A DNA stretch of 64,000 bases. It comes from an uncultured delta proteobacterium (GTDB lineage Bacteria > Desulfobacterota > Desulfomonilia > UBA1062). Position numbers and translations under genes: made by a program. Positions 4,751 to 64,000 of this stretch are shown here, piece by piece; position 1 is the stretch's first letter, and the number at the start of each line of letters is the position of its first letter. The DNA lies in the NCBI GenBank assembly GCA_963752595.1, contig CAVVYZ010000022.1:64001-128000 (forward strand), given 5' to 3'. The notes beneath the pieces were generated by a model. It made no database searches, was not told the DNA's origin, and saw only the letters and a program-made list of their open reading frames with translations.

Positions 4751-5964
4751 TTCTCGGTAATCGTGATCTTCGACCCGTCCCGTAGGCTCTCCGGAGGATT
4801 CAGGACAACCACGTCACCCGGCTTTGCTCCCTGGGGCACTTCCACCATATCGCCGAATCTTTCTCCCGTACGGATGCCTGTTCTCACCGCCTTGCCTTCC
4901 CGAACGATGAAGACGGCCGAACCTTCTCCCGAGCTGACGATCGCCGAGGAGTTCACCATGACACGGGCTTTCTCTTCTTCCTGTGTCAGGGGCCTGGAGA
5001 GGAATCCTACTTTGGCGCTCATTTCGGGCAGGATACGGGGATCAGGCTTTGCAAACCTGATTTTCACGAGCACAGTTGCCTTGGTTCTGTCAACGGTGGG
5101 AACAATCGTATCAACAGTCCCCTGGAACCGGATTCCGGGCAGCGCATCCAGCGTTATGTCGCAGGGTTGACCGGCGCTCACCATGCCGATATTCGATTCC
5201 GCGACATCGGCCTCCACCTGGAGAGATGAAAGGTCGGCGATGGTCACAACCGCTGCTTTTGCATTGGCTGCAGACCCCATAGGCGTGATGATGTCTCCCA
5301 CATCGGCATTCTTGGTGAGAACGACCGCATCGAACGGCGCCCTGATCTCGGTATACGAGAGCGAAACCTCCGAGCTTGAAAGGGCTGCGCGGCTCGATTC
5401 AACGGCCGCCTGCGCAGCTTCCAATGCTGCTTGGGCAGAGAGGTATCGCGTCCGAACCGTATCGAACTCGGAGCGTGAAACAGCACCGGATTTCACCAGA
5501 TTCTTCATGCGCTCGAAATTGCGGGATATATTGTTCAGATTTGCCTGGGCCTCCTGAACCCTTGCCCTGGCAAGTGCGAGATTGGCCCGGCTCTGGTCCA
5601 CGATAGCCTTGGCATCTTCGTTTTCGAGCCTGGCAAGGACCTGTCCCTGCTTTACGACGCTGCCTTCCTGGACCATGAGGGAGACGAGCTGGCCCGTGAC
5701 TTTGGTAGCCACGTCGGCCTTTCTCTGCGCAACGACATAACCGCTTGCACTGAGACGGGCCAGAAGCTGCGACGGATAGACCTCGCTCACGGTTGCAACG
5801 GACACAGCCACACCCTTTGAAGTAAAGGCCCAGACAATAAGTATTATAACGATGATGCCGGTTGCACCGAGGGTTATGGGCAGCACTGGTTTCGGCCGCC
5901 GGCGGGTCTGCTTGTCTTTTCGTTTTCTCTCTATGGCAAGCTTTTCGAGATCCTTGTCTTCCAT
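4747..5964 (-). CDS. Efflux periplasmic adaptor (MFP/MacA-like)
   Basis: N-terminal TM, lipoyl halves (VQEGSVVKQGQVL; EIRAPFDAVV), coiled hairpin; start taken at MEDKD. Confidence 0.9.
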   Translation of the reverse strand: MEDKDLEKLAIERKRKDKQTRRRPKPVLPITLGATGIIVIILIVWAFTSKGVAVSVATVSEVYPSQLLARLSASGYVVAQRKADVATKVTGQLVSLMVQEGSVVKQGQVLARLENEDAKAIVDQSRANLALARARVQEAQANLNNISRNFERMKNLVKSGAVSRSEFDTVRTRYLSAQAALEAAQAAVESSRAALSSSEVSLSYTEIRAPFDAVVLTKNADVGDIITPMGSAANAKAAVVTIADLSSLQVEADVAESNIGMVSAGQPCDITLDALPGIRFQGTVDTIVPTVDRTKATVLVKIRFAKPDPRILPEMSAKVGFLSRPLTQEEEKARVMVNSSAIVSSGEGSAVFIVREGKAVRTGIRTGERFGDMVEVPQGAKPGDVVVLNPPESLRDGSKITITEK

Positions 5965-6053
5965 CTCTTGAAACCTCATTTCAGTCAATATCATTGCTTA
6001 CATATATATACCAATATACATAAAATCTTTAACTTATCATATCTAAATCGCAG

Positions 6054-53662: not shown

Positions 53663-55078
53663 GAGCCGATTGCAAAACTCACAACGAGGGATAATATTGC
53701 GAATCAGCATATAAGTAATGAAATAGTGATGAGAAAGCTCTATTCTTTTTGTGCTGAGCAAAAAGAAAGGAGAAGCGATGAGCAATCTCTTCGAGATATG
53801 GAATACCAGACAGGCGAGATTTTTCCATGGTTGGAAGAGAGACTCGATCCGTTGAGTGATAAGGAGCAGCAATTTGTGAGAGTTGTCTGTCTGATGGACC
53901 TGCCGAAGCACATGCAGGGGTATCGCTGGATCGGGATAGGGAGGAAGCGAGAGGACAGGGTCTCAATCGCCAAGGCGTTTGTGGCGAAGGCGGTATACAA
54001 TTTTGAGACGACGAAGGTGCTCATAGAGTATCTGAAGGGGTGCAAGAATCCGAGGCGGTTATGCGGATGGGAGACGAGAGGAGATATTCCCTCTGAGTCG
54101 ACCTTTTGCCGGGCGTTTGGGGAGTACTCCCATGGATGCCTGCCACAGAAGATCCACGAGGCCATGGTGGAGGAGCATTGTGGGGACAAGCTTGTGGGTC
54201 ATGTGAGCCGGGATGCGACGGCCATAGAGGCGCGAGAGACGAGAGAAGACGATAAAGAAAGAAGCGGGTGAAACTGCGTCGGTGCCGAAGAGGAAACGGG
54301 GTCGCCCCAGGCAGGGAGAAGAAGTTGCTCCCAAGCCTCCGAAGAGGCTGGATCTTCAGGTTGGCCGGAGCCTGGAGGAGAATCTAAAGGATCTGCCGTA
54401 TCACTGTGCTGTAGGGACCAAGGTAGACAGCAAGGGATACAAGATGACCCGGAGGGGATACAAGCTGCATATCGACTGTATTGATGGGGATATTCCGGTG
54501 AGTGCATTATTAACCTCTGCGTCATTGCATGATTCCCAGGCAGCGATACCGCTTATGCAGATGACGTCGAAGCGGGTGGTGAGTCTGTATGATCTTATGG
54601 ATTCCGCCTATGATGCGCCGCAGATCAAGGAATTCAGTGAGGCGCTCTCGCATGTTCCGATCATTGATCCCAACCAGAGGCGAGGAGAGAAGATCCCGCT
54701 TGATCCAGCCAGGAAAGCTCGTTTTGCGCAAAGGAGCAGTAGTGAGAGAGTAAACTCGTATCTGAAAGACAACCACGGAGGAAATCATATCCGGGTAAGG
54801 GGGGCATCCAAGATCATGGCACATCTCATGTTCGGGCTCATTGTCATAACCGCGAATCAGCTTTTTCAGATGCTTTGTTGAAAGGTGTACATGCAAACTA
54901 GGACATATTCTCGGTACTTCCTGTGCAGTATGGCGGACAGCTACGCCCGAAAATCCGCATTTGGGCAATTTTTAGAATGGTAACATCAGGTAAACAGCTC
55001 TCATGACCTTGAACATAGAAAGTAACAGCGGCTTTGGGCTTCAAAATCTAAACCGGCTGAGAGTTTTGCAATCGGCTC
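53663..55078 (+). mobile_element. Insertion sequence, 1416 bp, DDE transposase (IS5/IS1182-like)
   Basis: Perfect 18-bp terminal IRs GAGCCGATTGCAAAACTC (53663-53680 / 55061-55078) flanked by TTTAA direct repeats. Confidence 0.92.
53778..54881 (+). pseudogene. DDE transposase, disrupted (frameshift near 53812; 7-bp duplication at 54233-54246)
   Basis: RLCGWE..PSESTF, RDATAIEAR, GYKLHID, LHDSQAAIPL, DLMDSAYD, RSSSERVN. Confidence 0.88.
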
Positions 55079-59237: not shown

Positions 59238-59624
59238 ATGAACGATAAAGAATATTTTGACAACACGAAAGGGAAAGGGGTTCTCGCTACGGCAGATGCC
59301 CAAGGTAATGTCGATGCTGCGCTCTATGCAAAACCTTTCTTCGTCGATGAAAAGACCGTAGTGTTCATCATGGCCGACCGGTTGAGCCATGAAAACCTGA
59401 AATCAAATGTCCACGCGGCATACCTCTTCATGGAGGAGGAAAACAGCTTGAAAGGAAGAAGGCTCTACCTGACAAAAATTCGGGAGGGAAAAAATTCCGA
59501 ACTCATCGATGAGTTGAGGCGCTTGAGAAATTATGCCTCTCAGGACAGGATATATGAAGAGGATTCATATCTTGTCTATTTTTCAATCGATAAAGTAACG
59601 CCTTTGATCGGGCACGGCTTATGA
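59238..59624 (+). CDS. Pyridoxamine 5'-phosphate oxidase-like (FMN split barrel) protein
   Basis: GVLATADAQG...SHENLKSNVHAAYLF...KGRRLYL. Confidence 0.8.
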   Translation: MNDKEYFDNTKGKGVLATADAQGNVDAALYAKPFFVDEKTVVFIMADRLSHENLKSNVHAAYLFMEEENSLKGRRLYLTKIREGKNSELIDELRRLRNYASQDRIYEEDSYLVYFSIDKVTPLIGHGL

Positions 59625-60479
59625 ACCGGCAGAACCGGATTTATGCTTCCATAGAAGCCTGTTTACAAGGCCGGCAATGACCCCACCGAAGCCTATGATC
59701 AATGCGCAGGCGGTAAACAGCCGCCCAACAAAGGGAGCCATGCCTGCCAGGCTTATTGCCACAGTTCCGGCTAATGTTTCCAGAAGCATAGGTCTGTCCG
59801 GCATTTTCAAGGCGAGGAAGAGTTTTTTTCCTATGAGCTGGACAACGGCGACGTAGCCGATAAAAAATGCAATGCCCACCAGAAGCATCTCGAATGGGAT
59901 AAGGATGATGCCGATGATCGAAATAAGAAGCATGAACGCTACGGGGAAGATCGAAGCACTCCCGAGAATGCCTAAAAAGAATGTCTTCAGTAAAGCGTGC
60001 TCGATGGTAAAGGAAATATATCCGATGGCGCGGGGTGCTATGGCAACCGTGATCAGGGCAAGCGCGAGAAAGCCTATAAAGGGAAAGATGCTAAACGGGG
60101 TATGAAACCCGTAGGGCATATCCCGCCAATGGTCATTCCCGGGCATGATAAATGATTTTATCCGGGAGGGATCGATAACGGTGATATCTCCGAGAACCGA
60201 AGCGCCTTGCTCTTTCACCACCGTCCCACCGAGAGAAACGATATTCCCTTTGATTATCGAACCCGGCCCCAGGAACACTGATCCGCCCACGGCAACTACA
60301 TCATTCCTGACAAGCCCGTCCACACGGACATCACCGCCGAGCGAGACTGCCGAATCCACCTCTTGTCCCCGCTCCACGGTCGCATTCCTGCCCAGTTCGA
60401 CCAGGGTATCCGCCTTTGCATATGCCGGAATGCAGATCATGCACAGCATAACGGCCGGCCAGGTTATCATTCGCGTCAT
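59619..60479 (-). CDS. Membrane protein with N-terminal beta-helix-like (bactofilin-like) repeats
   Basis: Signal peptide, repeats V(S/A)(L/V)GG.V, then several TM segments. Confidence 0.7.
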   Translation of the reverse strand: MTRMITWPAVMLCMICIPAYAKADTLVELGRNATVERGQEVDSAVSLGGDVRVDGLVRNDVVAVGGSVFLGPGSIIKGNIVSLGGTVVKEQGASVLGDITVIDPSRIKSFIMPGNDHWRDMPYGFHTPFSIFPFIGFLALALITVAIAPRAIGYISFTIEHALLKTFFLGILGSASIFPVAFMLLISIIGIILIPFEMLLVGIAFFIGYVAVVQLIGKKLFLALKMPDRPMLLETLAGTVAISLAGMAPFVGRLFTACALIIGFGGVIAGLVNRLLWKHKSGSAGS

Positions 60480-60561: not shown

Positions 60562-61419
60562 TTACCCTCTGGAAAACCGCCTGATATTCACTATCCGCAA
60601 GATGAGCACCACGCTCAGGTATACTGCACCGGCCAGAAGAATGATCGTTGCTCCGGTAGGAAGTCCCGGCCCGTAACTTATAGCCAGCCCGCCTGTAGTG
60701 AATGCGGCGGAAAAAAACATGGAGAGCACCATCATGTGCCCGAGCTTCTTGGAAAAATATCCGGCTGTTGCCGGAGGCAGCGTCAGGAGTGCGATAACCA
60801 TGACAATACCGACCACGCTGAGCATGAGCACAACGGTCAATGCTGTCAGGCACAGGAGCAGAAGGTAATACACCTCGACTCGCACGCCGCGCAGAAGGGC
60901 AAATTCCTCATCGAAGCAGACGGCGAGGAACTTGTTGTAGAAGATAAGGACAAGGACGATGATGAGCAGATCGAGGCCTGCCATGAGCCAGATGTCTCCC
61001 TGTGTCACCATGAGGATGTTCCCGAAGAGATAGCTCATCAGATTCTCGCTGTATCCCGGGGTCTTGAAGATGAACATGATACCCGCCGCCATGCCGATTG
61101 CCCATACGGCACCGATCACCGTATCCTCCCGCTGCTTTGCTCGGAGGCTCACCAGGCCGATGATGACGGCGGAGAGGAGAGCTGCGATCGTTGCGCCGAT
61201 GAGGGGATGAAACCACTCCCATCTCAGCACGACCTCACAGTATCGTGCCGCACCCATCCCGCCCAGAACGCTATGGGAGATAGCTCCTGCGATATATGTG
61301 ATCCTCCTGGTGACGACATAACTGCCGATTATCCCGCATGCAACACTGGCAAGAAGGCCTGCCATAAGTGCATACCTGAGGAACGAAAAGCTCATGAGAT
61401 CGGACAAGAATTCAGTCAT
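60562..61419 (-). CDS. znuB: Zn/Mn ABC transporter permease (ZnuB-like)
   Basis: AISHSVLGG, YLFGNIL, FDEEFALLRG, LLTLPPATA. Confidence 0.88.
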   Translation of the reverse strand: MTEFLSDLMSFSFLRYALMAGLLASVACGIIGSYVVTRRITYIAGAISHSVLGGMGAARYCEVVLRWEWFHPLIGATIAALLSAVIIGLVSLRAKQREDTVIGAVWAIGMAAGIMFIFKTPGYSENLMSYLFGNILMVTQGDIWLMAGLDLLIIVLVLIFYNKFLAVCFDEEFALLRGVRVEVYYLLLLCLTALTVVLMLSVVGIVMVIALLTLPPATAGYFSKKLGHMMVLSMFFSAAFTTGGLAISYGPGLPTGATIILLAGAVYLSVVLILRIVNIRRFSRG

Positions 61420-62170
61420 GCAGTTTCCCTTTTTTAGGATTCATATCATGATCATGCCTGACCATCTGTACCTTTGATCCATAAATCTCATTAATTATAT
61501 CTCCGGTAATATCACAGGTCGGATGGCACAGAAGCCTGCGGTTTACGCAGGCGACATTTTTCACGTGCCGTGAAACAAACCCGAGGTCATGGGTTACGAG
61601 CACGATGGTCATCTTCTGGTTCAGCTGATTGAGAAATTCGTAAAATTCCGTCTCTGCAGCGGCATCAACATTTGCCGTAGGTTCGTCGAGAAGCAGAAGA
61701 TCCGGGTGTGAGACGAGTGATCTGGCTATCAGCACCCGCTGGGTCTGCCCTCCGGAAAGGTCGGCGAACGGTCGGCTCCTCACCCCATAAAGATCCACTG
61801 TTCTAAGGGCCTCCTCTGCTGACAGTTTATCAGACTTGCTGTACCCCCCGAACCGTATGCCTGTCCCCAGACGTCCCATGAGGACGACGTCAATGACCGT
61901 TACAGGGAACAAGGGGTCAAGGGCGGTATGCTGCGGCATGTATCCGATTCTGGTTCGTGCCTTTTCCGGAGATGTCCCGAACACGCTCACCTTGCCTTTG
62001 TCCGGTTTTACGAGGCCCAGGATGAGCTTTAAAATCGTTGTTTTTCCACCGCCGTTCGGCCCCACGATGGACAGAAAATCCTGCTCTTGGATCTTTAAGC
62101 TCACATCTTCCAGGACCGGCATGCGCCCGTAGGTAAAGGATACCGCATCAAGTTCGATTACCGGCTTCAT
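61412..62170 (-). CDS. znuC: Zn/Mn ABC transporter ATP-binding protein (ZnuC-like)
   Basis: GPNGGGKTT, IGYMPQ, LSGGQTQR, LDEPTANVD, VTHDL, His-rich C-terminus. Confidence 0.9.
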   Translation of the reverse strand: MKPVIELDAVSFTYGRMPVLEDVSLKIQEQDFLSIVGPNGGGKTTILKLILGLVKPDKGKVSVFGTSPEKARTRIGYMPQHTALDPLFPVTVIDVVLMGRLGTGIRFGGYSKSDKLSAEEALRTVDLYGVRSRPFADLSGGQTQRVLIARSLVSHPDLLLLDEPTANVDAAAETEFYEFLNQLNQKMTIVLVTHDLGFVSRHVKNVACVNRRLLCHPTCDITGDIINEIYGSKVQMVRHDHDMNPKKGKLHD

Positions 62171-62219
62171 CTTTTCACGATACCTCTCATATCCTATAAT
62201 CCCCTTTCATCTTCGGGTC

Positions 62220-63095
62220 TTACTTCCGACCCGCAAGAGAGGTCTTAATCGTTTCAGCCATTTTCTTCATTTCCGTGAGATAGTTCCCGGGAAGGGGGTT
62301 GATGGGGATGACCTCCCCTCCGATCGATTGGGCAATTGCCCGGGCAGCCCTTTGAGAGAACTGGGGCTGGACAAAGATAACCTTGACGTTTTCCTTTCTC
62401 GTGCTCTCTATCAGCCTGGCAATCTGTCTGGCGCTGGGCTCTTTTCCCTCAACTTCGAAAGCTACCTGCTGCAGCCCGTAGGATTCACAGAAATACCCGA
62501 AGGCGGGGTGAAATACATAAATTTTTCTGCCTTTGACGGGTGCGAGTATTCCCGTGATCTCGGAATCGAGTTTGTCCAGGTCCTTTTGGAAAACTTCCAG
62601 ATTCTTTCGATAAAATTCTCCATGAACCGGATCGATCTTCGTGAGCCCTTCGGATATATTCCGGGCAATTATCTTGACCCGCTTGGGATCAAGCCAGATA
62701 TGGGGGTCAGGCCCCTGCTCGCCGGAACCCGGCGAAAAAAAGAGAATTTTGACTCCCCTGGTTGTATCGATTATGGAAAGCTGTGGAAATAGGCCGGCAA
62801 TCTTCGGAACCAGGGCACGCTCGAAAGGTGCCCCGATCGTGAAGAAAACCCGTGAGCGAGCCAGTTTGGACATCTGGGCCGGAGTGGGTTCATACGTCTC
62901 ATGAGACTGTCCTTCGCCCACGAGGACACTGACCTCGACGTATTCCCCTCCTACTCTTTCCACAAAATACTTCTGCGAGATAATACTCACGAAGGCCTTG
63001 ATCTTCTCCCCTCCGGCCTGAGAGGCACTCGATGGGCACGCCATCAGGATGATGACGATCAGGCCTGTCAGAAAGGACAGTACCTTTCCCTTCAT
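62220..63095 (-). CDS. znuA: Zn/Mn ABC substrate-binding protein (ZnuA/TroA family)
   Basis: SHETYEPTP, DPHIWLDP, FHPAFGYF, EGKEPS. Confidence 0.9.
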   Translation of the reverse strand: MKGKVLSFLTGLIVIILMACPSSASQAGGEKIKAFVSIISQKYFVERVGGEYVEVSVLVGEGQSHETYEPTPAQMSKLARSRVFFTIGAPFERALVPKIAGLFPQLSIIDTTRGVKILFFSPGSGEQGPDPHIWLDPKRVKIIARNISEGLTKIDPVHGEFYRKNLEVFQKDLDKLDSEITGILAPVKGRKIYVFHPAFGYFCESYGLQQVAFEVEGKEPSARQIARLIESTRKENVKVIFVQPQFSQRAARAIAQSIGGEVIPINPLPGNYLTEMKKMAETIKTSLAGRK

Positions 63096-63124
63096 ATTAT
63101 TTACCTCCGGGTCTTATCCCCATA

Positions 63125-63385
63125 TTATTCATGCCCGATCTTGGTGCAGACAAGGAAACGCTCGTTGCACTGCTCGCACGTTTCGATCGAATGGGCCTCC
63201 GAGAAATCCTTCCAGTGCTGCTTCTGGTTCGGCGTCAGCGTGCCTTTCCCGTTGCACAGGGGGCAGACGCTGTCCAGTGCAGTTAGAATAGCTGAACGGA
63301 TGAATTCCGATCTGTTGGGTATTCCCTGAATGATCCTGAAAAGATGCTCATCAACTTTGAAAGTTACGATCTCATGCTTTTTCAT
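63125..63385 (-). CDS. CopG/RHH-type regulator with C-terminal Cys/His metal-binding tail
   Basis: IVTFKVD..LF...NRSEFIRSAI (RHH), then CPLC...H...H...CEQC...C. Confidence 0.8.
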   Translation of the reverse strand: MKKHEIVTFKVDEHLFRIIQGIPNRSEFIRSAILTALDSVCPLCNGKGTLTPNQKQHWKDFSEAHSIETCEQCNERFLVCTKIGHE

Positions 63386-63407
63386 GCTATACTCTCACCG
63401 GACCTTA

Positions 63408-63459
63408 GTAATACTATGTAATACTTTTGTATTAGAAACCAAGACCTGATAATTGTCAA
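63408..63459 (-). promoter_or_regulatory. Sigma-70 promoter overlapped by TAATAC repeats (candidate RHH operator)
   Basis: Minus strand TTGACA (63459-54)-N17-TCTAAT (63436-31); GTAATACT at 63408 and 63418; TAATAC-TTTT-GTATTA palindrome 63419-63434. Confidence 0.7.
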
Positions 63460-63612: not shown

Positions 63613-64000
63613 CTACTTTTTTGACGTACCCTTGAGCACCTTGAAAAAGTCGTAATCCGTACTGAGGATCAGGGTTGTATTGTCGAAAGAGGTTTGCTTA
63701 TACGTCTCGAGGGTCTTGTAGAAGGAATAAAATTCCGGATCCTGATTGTAGGACTTCCCATAGATCCTGGTGACCTCGGCATCGGCCTTTCCCTTGATCT
63801 CTTCCGCTGTCTTGAAGGCCTCTGACCGGATAGCCTGGAGATCTTTACCCATGCGCCCGGTTATCTCTGCCTTTTTTCCCTCTCCTTCGGATATCAGCTG
63901 AGCTGCCTGGTATTTCCTTTCGGAGATCATCCGGGCATACACCCTATCTTTGACCTTTTCTCCGTAGTGTAGGCGCTTTACCTGAACATCTACGAGTCCC
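63613..64000 (-). CDS. hflC: Protease modulator HflC, C-terminal part (5' truncated by window edge)
   Basis: VDVQVKRL...VYARMISER...GKADAE...YNQDPEFYSFYKTLETY. Confidence 0.9.
   Translation of the reverse strand, partial: GLVDVQVKRLHYGEKVKDRVYARMISERKYQAAQLISEGEGKKAEITGRMGKDLQAIRSEAFKTAEEIKGKADAEVTRIYGKSYNQDPEFYSFYKTLETYKQTSFDNTTLILSTDYDFFKVLKGTSKK

Follow-up and report, generated by a model that had tools for sequence, protein, structure and literature searches.

A candidate ribbon-helix-helix repressor of zinc-import operons and its conserved 17-bp operator in mostly anaerobic bacteria

In a 64,000-nt stretch of DNA from an uncultured delta proteobacterium (hereafter the window; positions 64,001-128,000 of contig CAVVYZ010000022.1, assembly GCA_963752595.1), an 86-aa protein that joins a ribbon-helix-helix (RHH) domain to a small Cys/His domain is encoded ahead of the znu genes of a zinc-type ABC importer. 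Judged from sequence, this protein is probably a zinc-activated repressor that binds a 17-bp site of zinc-import operons in place of Zur. This reading is based on the family itself, its linkage to znu genes, the conserved site and its position within promoters, the co-occurrence of gene and site, and an alternation with Fur-family genes, and from these we infer both DNA binding and metal sensing by the regulator. The family as such is real and well supported and is apparently undescribed.

Linkage to zinc importers and the conserved operator

The original prediction placed the 86-aa gene directly upstream of, and co-oriented with, znuA, znuC and znuB, and both the ORF positions and the Pfam matches confirm this arrangement (regulator-znuA-znuC-znuB, all on the minus strand, with 29 bp between the regulator ORF and znuA). 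A genome scan confirmed at least 519 loci encoding the family (519 of 597 rows), of which the best 80, leaning to close kin, were analysed. A co-oriented znuA or znuB lies within 3.5 kb of the regulator in 73 of these 80 loci and all three znu genes in 61, and among held-out loci the znu genes follow the regulator in 10/10 of a first set and 52/57 of a second (60 loci minus three already in the training set), with convergent znu genes at two further loci of the latter. Homologues of the regulator thus precede metal uptake genes, as had been proposed as a check. The linkage is to function and not to one cassette: in a quick tree of 99, the ZnuA proteins encoded under the regulator fall into two clades with a deep split between them (78 and 8 rows, SH-aLRT 99). 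Within one genus the transporter cassette has been swapped while regulator and site are unchanged (G011). The ZnuA of the window is closest to the solved cyanobacterial-type zinc uptake proteins 1PQ4/2OV1 (1e-52, versus 2e-25 for the best manganese-binding protein) and the second clade is closest to YcdH and AdcA; these targets narrow the metal to zinc.

Upstream of the regulator, copies of GTAATACT occur at 63408-63415 and 63418-63425 and a TAATAC-N4-GTATTA palindrome at 63419-63434. Each of these elements, together with TTGACA and TCTAAT, was found where the original prediction had put it, but TCTAAT is off-consensus and a consensus promoter scanner made no call at the regulator promoter, for which reason this -10 is treated as a candidate only. 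The repeats phased by 10 bp proved to be conserved: the motif GTAWTAC-N3-GTAWTAH, with up to two mismatches, is present in 93 of 97 distinct upstream regions compared with 0.3% of 1,940 dinucleotide shuffles, and a site above 12 bits was found in 10/10 and 56/57 of the held-out loci against a background of about 0.0013 sites per 250 nt in the window's own genome. In contrast, the N4 palindrome, also put forward as an operator, was rejected, being present in 1/97 upstream regions. The conserved operator consists of two self-complementary heptamers 10 bp apart, i.e. one helical turn, with a spacer of 3 bp in 79/97 upstream regions and of 13 or 14 bp in three. Of the four training regions lacking a site, two do so because their gene order differs, the site preceding znuA upstream of the regulator in one (L107) and an AztD-like gene plus znuA in the other (L053).

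With a matrix trained without the window, the window's operator is the top-scoring site of its own genome (27.4 bits, the next being 18.0). Of the 93 sites, 83 have a TTGAC-like element no more than 60 bp upstream, and the operator mostly starts about 11, 18-21 or 34-35 bp past this element, positions corresponding to the promoter spacer, the -10 or the transcription start; that of the window falls in the last of these.

The site and the gene also travel together when they are not adjacent. An exact match to the operator was found in 35/42 regulator-carrying and 2/19 regulator-less relatives, counts which come from related genomes and so admit no valid significance test. A separate znuA bearing the site lies away from the regulator in four genomes (G041, G042, G047 and G048), a znuACB operon with the site lies apart from a lone regulator in G044, and G105 has a separate znuB with the site. 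Since the site precedes znu genes distant from the regulator, the evidence exceeds mere autoregulation. The operator is thus conserved on zinc importer promoters both in cis and in trans.

Alternation with Zur was examined at 14 znu loci of regulator-less relatives, one of which is cut before its promoter. None of the 13 remaining promoters scores above 8.2 bits for the operator, and a Fur-family gene lies beside znu in 5/14 of these loci versus 0/42 regulator-carrying genomes. One such locus (L132), whose ZnuA falls in the same branch as those of the RHH-run operons, carries the exact Desulfovibrio-type Zur box ATGCAACNNNGTTGCAT of PMC545781. This box was found within three mismatches in 0/97 upstream regions of the RHH gene, and the best matches in the window to two published delta-proteobacterial Zur boxes have 4 and 9 mismatches. 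Regulation by Zur would have spoken against the original prediction, but at these loci no Zur box was found and no Fur-family gene next to the znu genes. Separately, Fur-family genes divergent from a distinct znuACB clade (L139, L140, L142 and L143) face promoters with TTGCA...TGCAA-type palindromes, 5-6 mismatches from published Zur boxes, which are possibly a further Zur-box variant.

The regulator gene was found in 42/61 near relatives (one a contig-edge fragment), in 19/301 genomes drawn from the same phylum (one a weak match), in 32/61 relatives of a Zixibacteria genome and in 30/61 relatives of a spirochaete genome. By their titles, the best 80 loci come from Thermodesulfobacteriota/Deltaproteobacteria, Planctomycetota, Spirochaetota, Zixiibacteriota, Fibrobacterota, Ignavibacteriota, Acidobacteriota, Hydrogenedentota, Glassbacteria, Electryoneota and Verrucomicrobiota, and regulator and site together are found in about ten phyla of anaerobic and uncultured bacteria. 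No relative was found in the viral contigs searched.

Table 1. Features of the regulator-znuACB locus (positions in the window)
Feature	Position	Strand	Basis or remark
-35 hexamer TTGACA	63454..63459	-	sequence
candidate -10 TCTAAT	63431..63436	-	sequence, inferred; off-consensus, overlaps imperfect third half-site
predicted operator GTATTAC-ATA-GTATTAC	63408..63424	.	conserved upstream motif; over predicted transcription start
probable ribosome-binding site GGTGAGAG	63392..63399	-	sequence, inferred
86-aa regulator ORF	63125..63385	-	RHH domain ~residues 5-38 and Cys/His domain 41-80
znuA, cluster A-I solute-binding protein	62220..63095	-	Pfam ZnuA 3e-67; three His motifs
znuC, ABC ATPase	61412..62170	-	Pfam ABC_tran 1e-30
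znuB, ABC-3 permease	60562..61419	-	Pfam ABC-3 3e-69

Past znuB by 82 bp, and co-oriented with it, lies a gene for a 286-aa membrane protein without a family match (59619-60479, minus strand), which may be co-transcribed with the znu operon; relatives of this gene occur in 12/80 loci, the eight listed being close kin. Upstream of the regulator promoter is the 3' end of hflC (63613-64000, minus strand), and hflK/hflC-like neighbours of the regulator recur in close kin only. Two successive ORFs at 53726-54881 (plus strand) are what we take to be a single frameshift-split transposase.

The regulator protein and its sister clade

The N-terminal part of the 86-aa protein contains the pattern TFKVD...NRSEFIRSAI, and it is by this strand-helix-helix sequence pattern that the protein belongs to the RHH superfamily. 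Seven residues of the Cys/His domain, C41, C44, H57, H65, C70, C73 and C80, are invariant among 63 aligned members, and in the core-family homologues H65 is present in 235/235 and C80 in 234/235; a further histidine occurs in the C-terminal tail of 50/97 members. The fusion of an RHH pattern to CxxC...H...H..CxxC...C was correctly described at the outset, with an RHH assignment that lies below the Pfam cut-off. No Pfam or NCBIfam model matches the regulator above its cut-off. RHH_1 reaches E values up to 0.01 in 31/63 members, still under the curated cut-off, DnaJ_CXXCXGXG matches 35/63 members below its cut-off, and the aCcr1 RHH cell-cycle family matches the regulator at 9e-6.

A monomer model of the regulator (pLDDT 82, pTM 0.48) has helices at residues 13-20, 25-38 and 52-61 and a hairpin at 65-69/76-80. 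With this model, Foldseek returned nothing at E values up to 0.001, and a wide structural search gave RHH proteins or antitoxins as most of the top matches. A sequence search of the PDB found no solved relative, the matches being weak ones to anti-TRAP/DnaJ, and a protein search found 495 homologues, the named ones being called 'CopG family', 'ribbon-helix-helix domain-containing' or 'hypothetical' and nothing else. In two members (P0121 and P0144) the regulator is duplicated in tandem within one chain, and a third (P0167) joins a NikR-like N-terminus to the Cys/His domain of the family, in each case either naturally or as an assembly artefact.

A profile search identified a sister clade, made up of RHH proteins whose Cys-rich tail is longer (P0240, P0212 and loci L183-L262), which hhalign matches to the regulator family at 99.8% and which provides a natural control. 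Among 80 metagenome loci close to one of its members there is no znuA or znuB, and the operator is present in 0/71 of their upstream regions; a sister-clade query in five planctomycete genomes found the core gene alone. The four cysteines and H57 are kept in this clade, whereas H65 is present in 6/75 members and C80 in 0/75. As H65 and C80 are thus a feature of the znu-linked clade, and are placed by the model at the open ends of the predicted hairpin, we infer a division of the domain into a putative structural Cys4 site and a putative regulatory site formed by H57, H65 and C80.

Proposed mechanism and other explanations

In the mechanism we propose, one RHH dimer would bind each GTAWTAC heptamer through strand residues I6-T8-K10, and a pair of dimers, spaced by 10 bp along the same side of the double helix, would block RNA polymerase by covering the -10, the spacer ahead of it or the transcription start. 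C41, C44, C70 and C73 would form the structural zinc site, and H65 and C80 with H57 the regulatory one, its fourth ligand coming perhaps from the His-containing tail or from the partner subunit. When zinc is sufficient, the regulatory site would be filled and the dimer pair locked on the DNA, shutting down the operon including the regulator's own gene; upon zinc starvation the regulator would be released.

Several observations weigh against this interpretation. The RHH_1 match of the window protein has an E value of 0.054, under the Pfam cut-off, the fold matches of its model are weak (Z scores of 2.5-3.5 for those noted above, 3.5 being the highest), and residues 1-12 have no strand in the model, which is that of a monomer, an intertwined dimer with a two-stranded beta ribbon being a further mark of the RHH superfamily. 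The two-site metal model rests on conservation and on the secondary structure of that monomer model. The lean of the 80 loci to close kin is reduced, not removed, by the held-out sets; seven of the 80 have no nearby co-oriented znuA or znuB, and one locus (L334) has neither an operator site nor znu genes. The regulon is small: in the genome of the window no other target is credible, and 15 of 27 secondary exact sites examined lie at unrelated places. In relatives, 10 of 17 such sites precede znuA or a probable outer-membrane protein gene and seven are unrelated, a CRISPR array and coding regions among them, while in other phyla one of ten precedes znuB, one is at a contig end and eight are unrelated or unexplained. 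Finally, eight of the 13 regulator-less znu promoters have neither the site nor an adjacent Fur-family gene, and a distant Zur is possible, the genome to which the window belongs being 84% complete.

A wider regulon within this genome was considered and rejected, the next sites (18.0, 17.3 and 16.9 bits) lying, as judged from the translations, upstream of a GntR/FadR-like gene, in the interval that separates a DedA-like from a sigma factor gene, and at the end of a ligase gene. The same genome encodes NikR as a separate gene beside nikM, and two Fur-family genes whose neighbours we take, from their translations, to be feoB and rubrerythrin.

The protein might be the cognate repressor and yet respond to cobalt, nickel, cadmium or to cysteine oxidation or persulfidation, with zinc merely structural, which we consider unlikely. 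Five cysteines and two histidines would be able to coordinate several metals or to undergo reactions with sulfur species, as is established for Cys-rich sensors (PMC11672702 section 3.2.1), and the carriers are mostly anaerobes; however, regulators distinct from this one (NikR, Fur and PerR-like) accompany the nickel, iron and peroxide genes of the window's genome, and two manganese-type troA-like operons in carrier genomes (L147 and L148) are without the site. Cluster A-I binding proteins lack strict zinc specificity, and the substrates of two targets, a 205-aa membrane protein and a 590-aa probable outer-membrane protein, are not known, but the solved proteins nearest to either transporter clade bind zinc, an AztD-like gene is among the targets, and within one ZnuA clade the regulator in part gives way to a Fur-family gene with a Zur box.

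Many RHH proteins, such as CopG, Arc and omega, are ligand-free autorepressors. The regulator might likewise bind without a metal switch, as a plain feedback limiter, or bind only without zinc, in which case the logic would be reversed. This seems improbable, as sites before distant znu genes oppose self-limitation alone, ligands specific to the znu-linked clade are hard to account for without sensing, and sites on the -10 or start suit repression, zinc-triggered release having the wrong sign for an importer; in its favour, CdrL combines an RHH domain with a zinc ribbon and has no zinc-sensing role reported in the accessible part of PMC7439475.

That the site belongs instead to NikR, a distant Zur or a sigma factor, the RHH gene being carried along with the cassette, is very improbable and is largely refuted by the distributions: the half-site does resemble the delta-proteobacterial NikR half-site, NikR is present in 50/61 relatives and a -10 can coincide with the second half-site, but NikR half-sites lie 13-14 bp apart, NikR was not found in six genomes with the gene and the exact site (G001, G005, G006, G007 at 95-100% completeness, G013 and G050) and is present in 14 regulator-less genomes whose examined znu promoters are without the site, the site shifts relative to the -35 unlike a sigma element, and the cassette has been swapped under an unchanged regulator and site in one genus.

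Further targets and relation to known regulators

The zinc-activated repressor that we favour may control genes other than znuACB. In five of the seven loci without nearby znu genes, a 205-aa helical membrane protein is encoded directly downstream of the regulator, and the arrangement of this gene after regulator and site, replacing znuACB, was seen at L070:5394-6008, L042:717-1331, L043:2183-2797, L066:5284-5919, L098 (about 5405-6001) and L272:1501-2115. The protein has at least 7,932 homologues, no Pfam or NCBIfam match, and invariant residues H12, H46, H49, H113, H144, C187 and C188. Its model (pLDDT 80) matches TRIC cation channels with a Z score of 9.8 (rmsd 3.1, 131 aligned; next unrelated match 6.4), a match within the chance range of helical bundles, and Foldseek with this model returned nothing at E values up to 0.001; it is a candidate new zinc importer.

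A secreted protein of 570-630 aa ending in Phe, probably an outer-membrane protein and without a Pfam or NCBIfam match, is encoded at L113:3792-5579, L114, L116, L117, L122, L123 and L145:5509-7299; the operator lies upstream of its gene in six genomes of family f2, and the gene follows znuB in G044. An ArsP_1 (DUF318) permease gene lies downstream of the operator-bearing znuA in G042 (L113:822-2058) and directly upstream of the regulator in G596 (L331:1-1436). Two spirochaete genomes have strong sites (L158:1927 and 2051, 25.3 and 19.6 bits; L156:2776, 24.0 bits) followed by genes without an evident zinc link.

The regulator resembles NikR in having an N-terminal RHH and a C-terminal metal-site domain, in the predicted corepression of an ABC importer and in two symmetric half-sites alike in sequence (GTAWTAC here, GTGTTAC/GTAACAC for NikR; PMC545781). 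It differs in that NikR_C is absent from its 86 aa (no PF08753 match, in agreement with the original prediction), in having a Cys4 plus His/His/Cys pattern where NikR has His3Cys nickel sites (PMC11672702 section 3.2.8), in the closer half-sites and zinc-type targets, and in that a true NikR is encoded separately in the same genome. With Zur it has in common the targets znuABC, an AztD-like gene and a probable outer-membrane protein, a predicted structural Cys4 plus regulatory site (PMC11672702) and the place beside znu genes that Zur takes in relatives; however, it is an RHH and not a winged-helix protein (no FUR, PF01475, match), has another operator and, in the genomes examined, a smaller regulon, and the two alternate at znu loci. 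The regulator would thus work like Zur and be built partly like NikR, without the defining features of either.

AdcR is likewise a known non-Zur regulator of zinc uptake, and AdcA-like binding proteins are also found under the RHH regulator, but AdcR has a MarR fold, to which the regulator has no match, and is streptococcal. CdrL of haloarchaea also has an RHH followed by a zinc-ribbon domain and binds one promoter (PMC7439475), whereas its double zinc ribbon (DZR, PF12773) has no match in the regulator, and CdrL is limited to Halobacteria and regulates cdrS-ftsZ2 and not the uptake of metals, the present regulator adjoining znu genes. Residues 41-65 weakly match the anti-TRAP knuckle and helix (E 0.0016), but in contrast with anti-TRAP and the DnaJ CxxCxGxG domain the regulator has one such knuckle, fused to a DNA-binding domain and followed by a hairpin with a second CxxC.

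We found no description of the family in the literature, although paywalled papers, regulon databases and supplements could hold one; the terms 'ribbon' and 'CopG' are absent from PMC6103462, and the CopG gene mentioned in PMC5387054 is unrelated. A 2024 review covers 12 structural families with metal sensors, NikR being the sole RHH family among its section headings (PMC11672702), and a 2004 survey found three delta-proteobacteria that have znuABC but neither Zur nor Zur boxes, for which it suggested another mechanism (PMC545781). The RHH family is a concrete candidate for such cases, the three genomes of that survey lying outside our sample.

With somewhat less assurance than for the repressor itself, we lean towards a broader view in which this family joins NikR as the second RHH metalloregulator and, next to Zur and AdcR, offers a third way of controlling zinc uptake: a protein of about 85 residues that senses zinc through a new His/His/Cys site set on an older Cys4 domain, that was transferred through at least ten mostly anaerobic phyla, and whose operator leads to new zinc importers (the 205-aa TRIC-like and 590-aa probable outer-membrane proteins). 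If true, the metal sensors would gain a family, a further RHH sensor that has a metal domain and an operator of its own, and the origin of a regulatory site would be illustrated, as the sister clade shares the scaffold but has neither the ligands specific to the site nor the operator or the targets. The operator could serve as a probe for unrecognized zinc transporters, and a one-component sensor of 86 aa whose site spans 17 bp would be easily tested and usable as a biosensor part.

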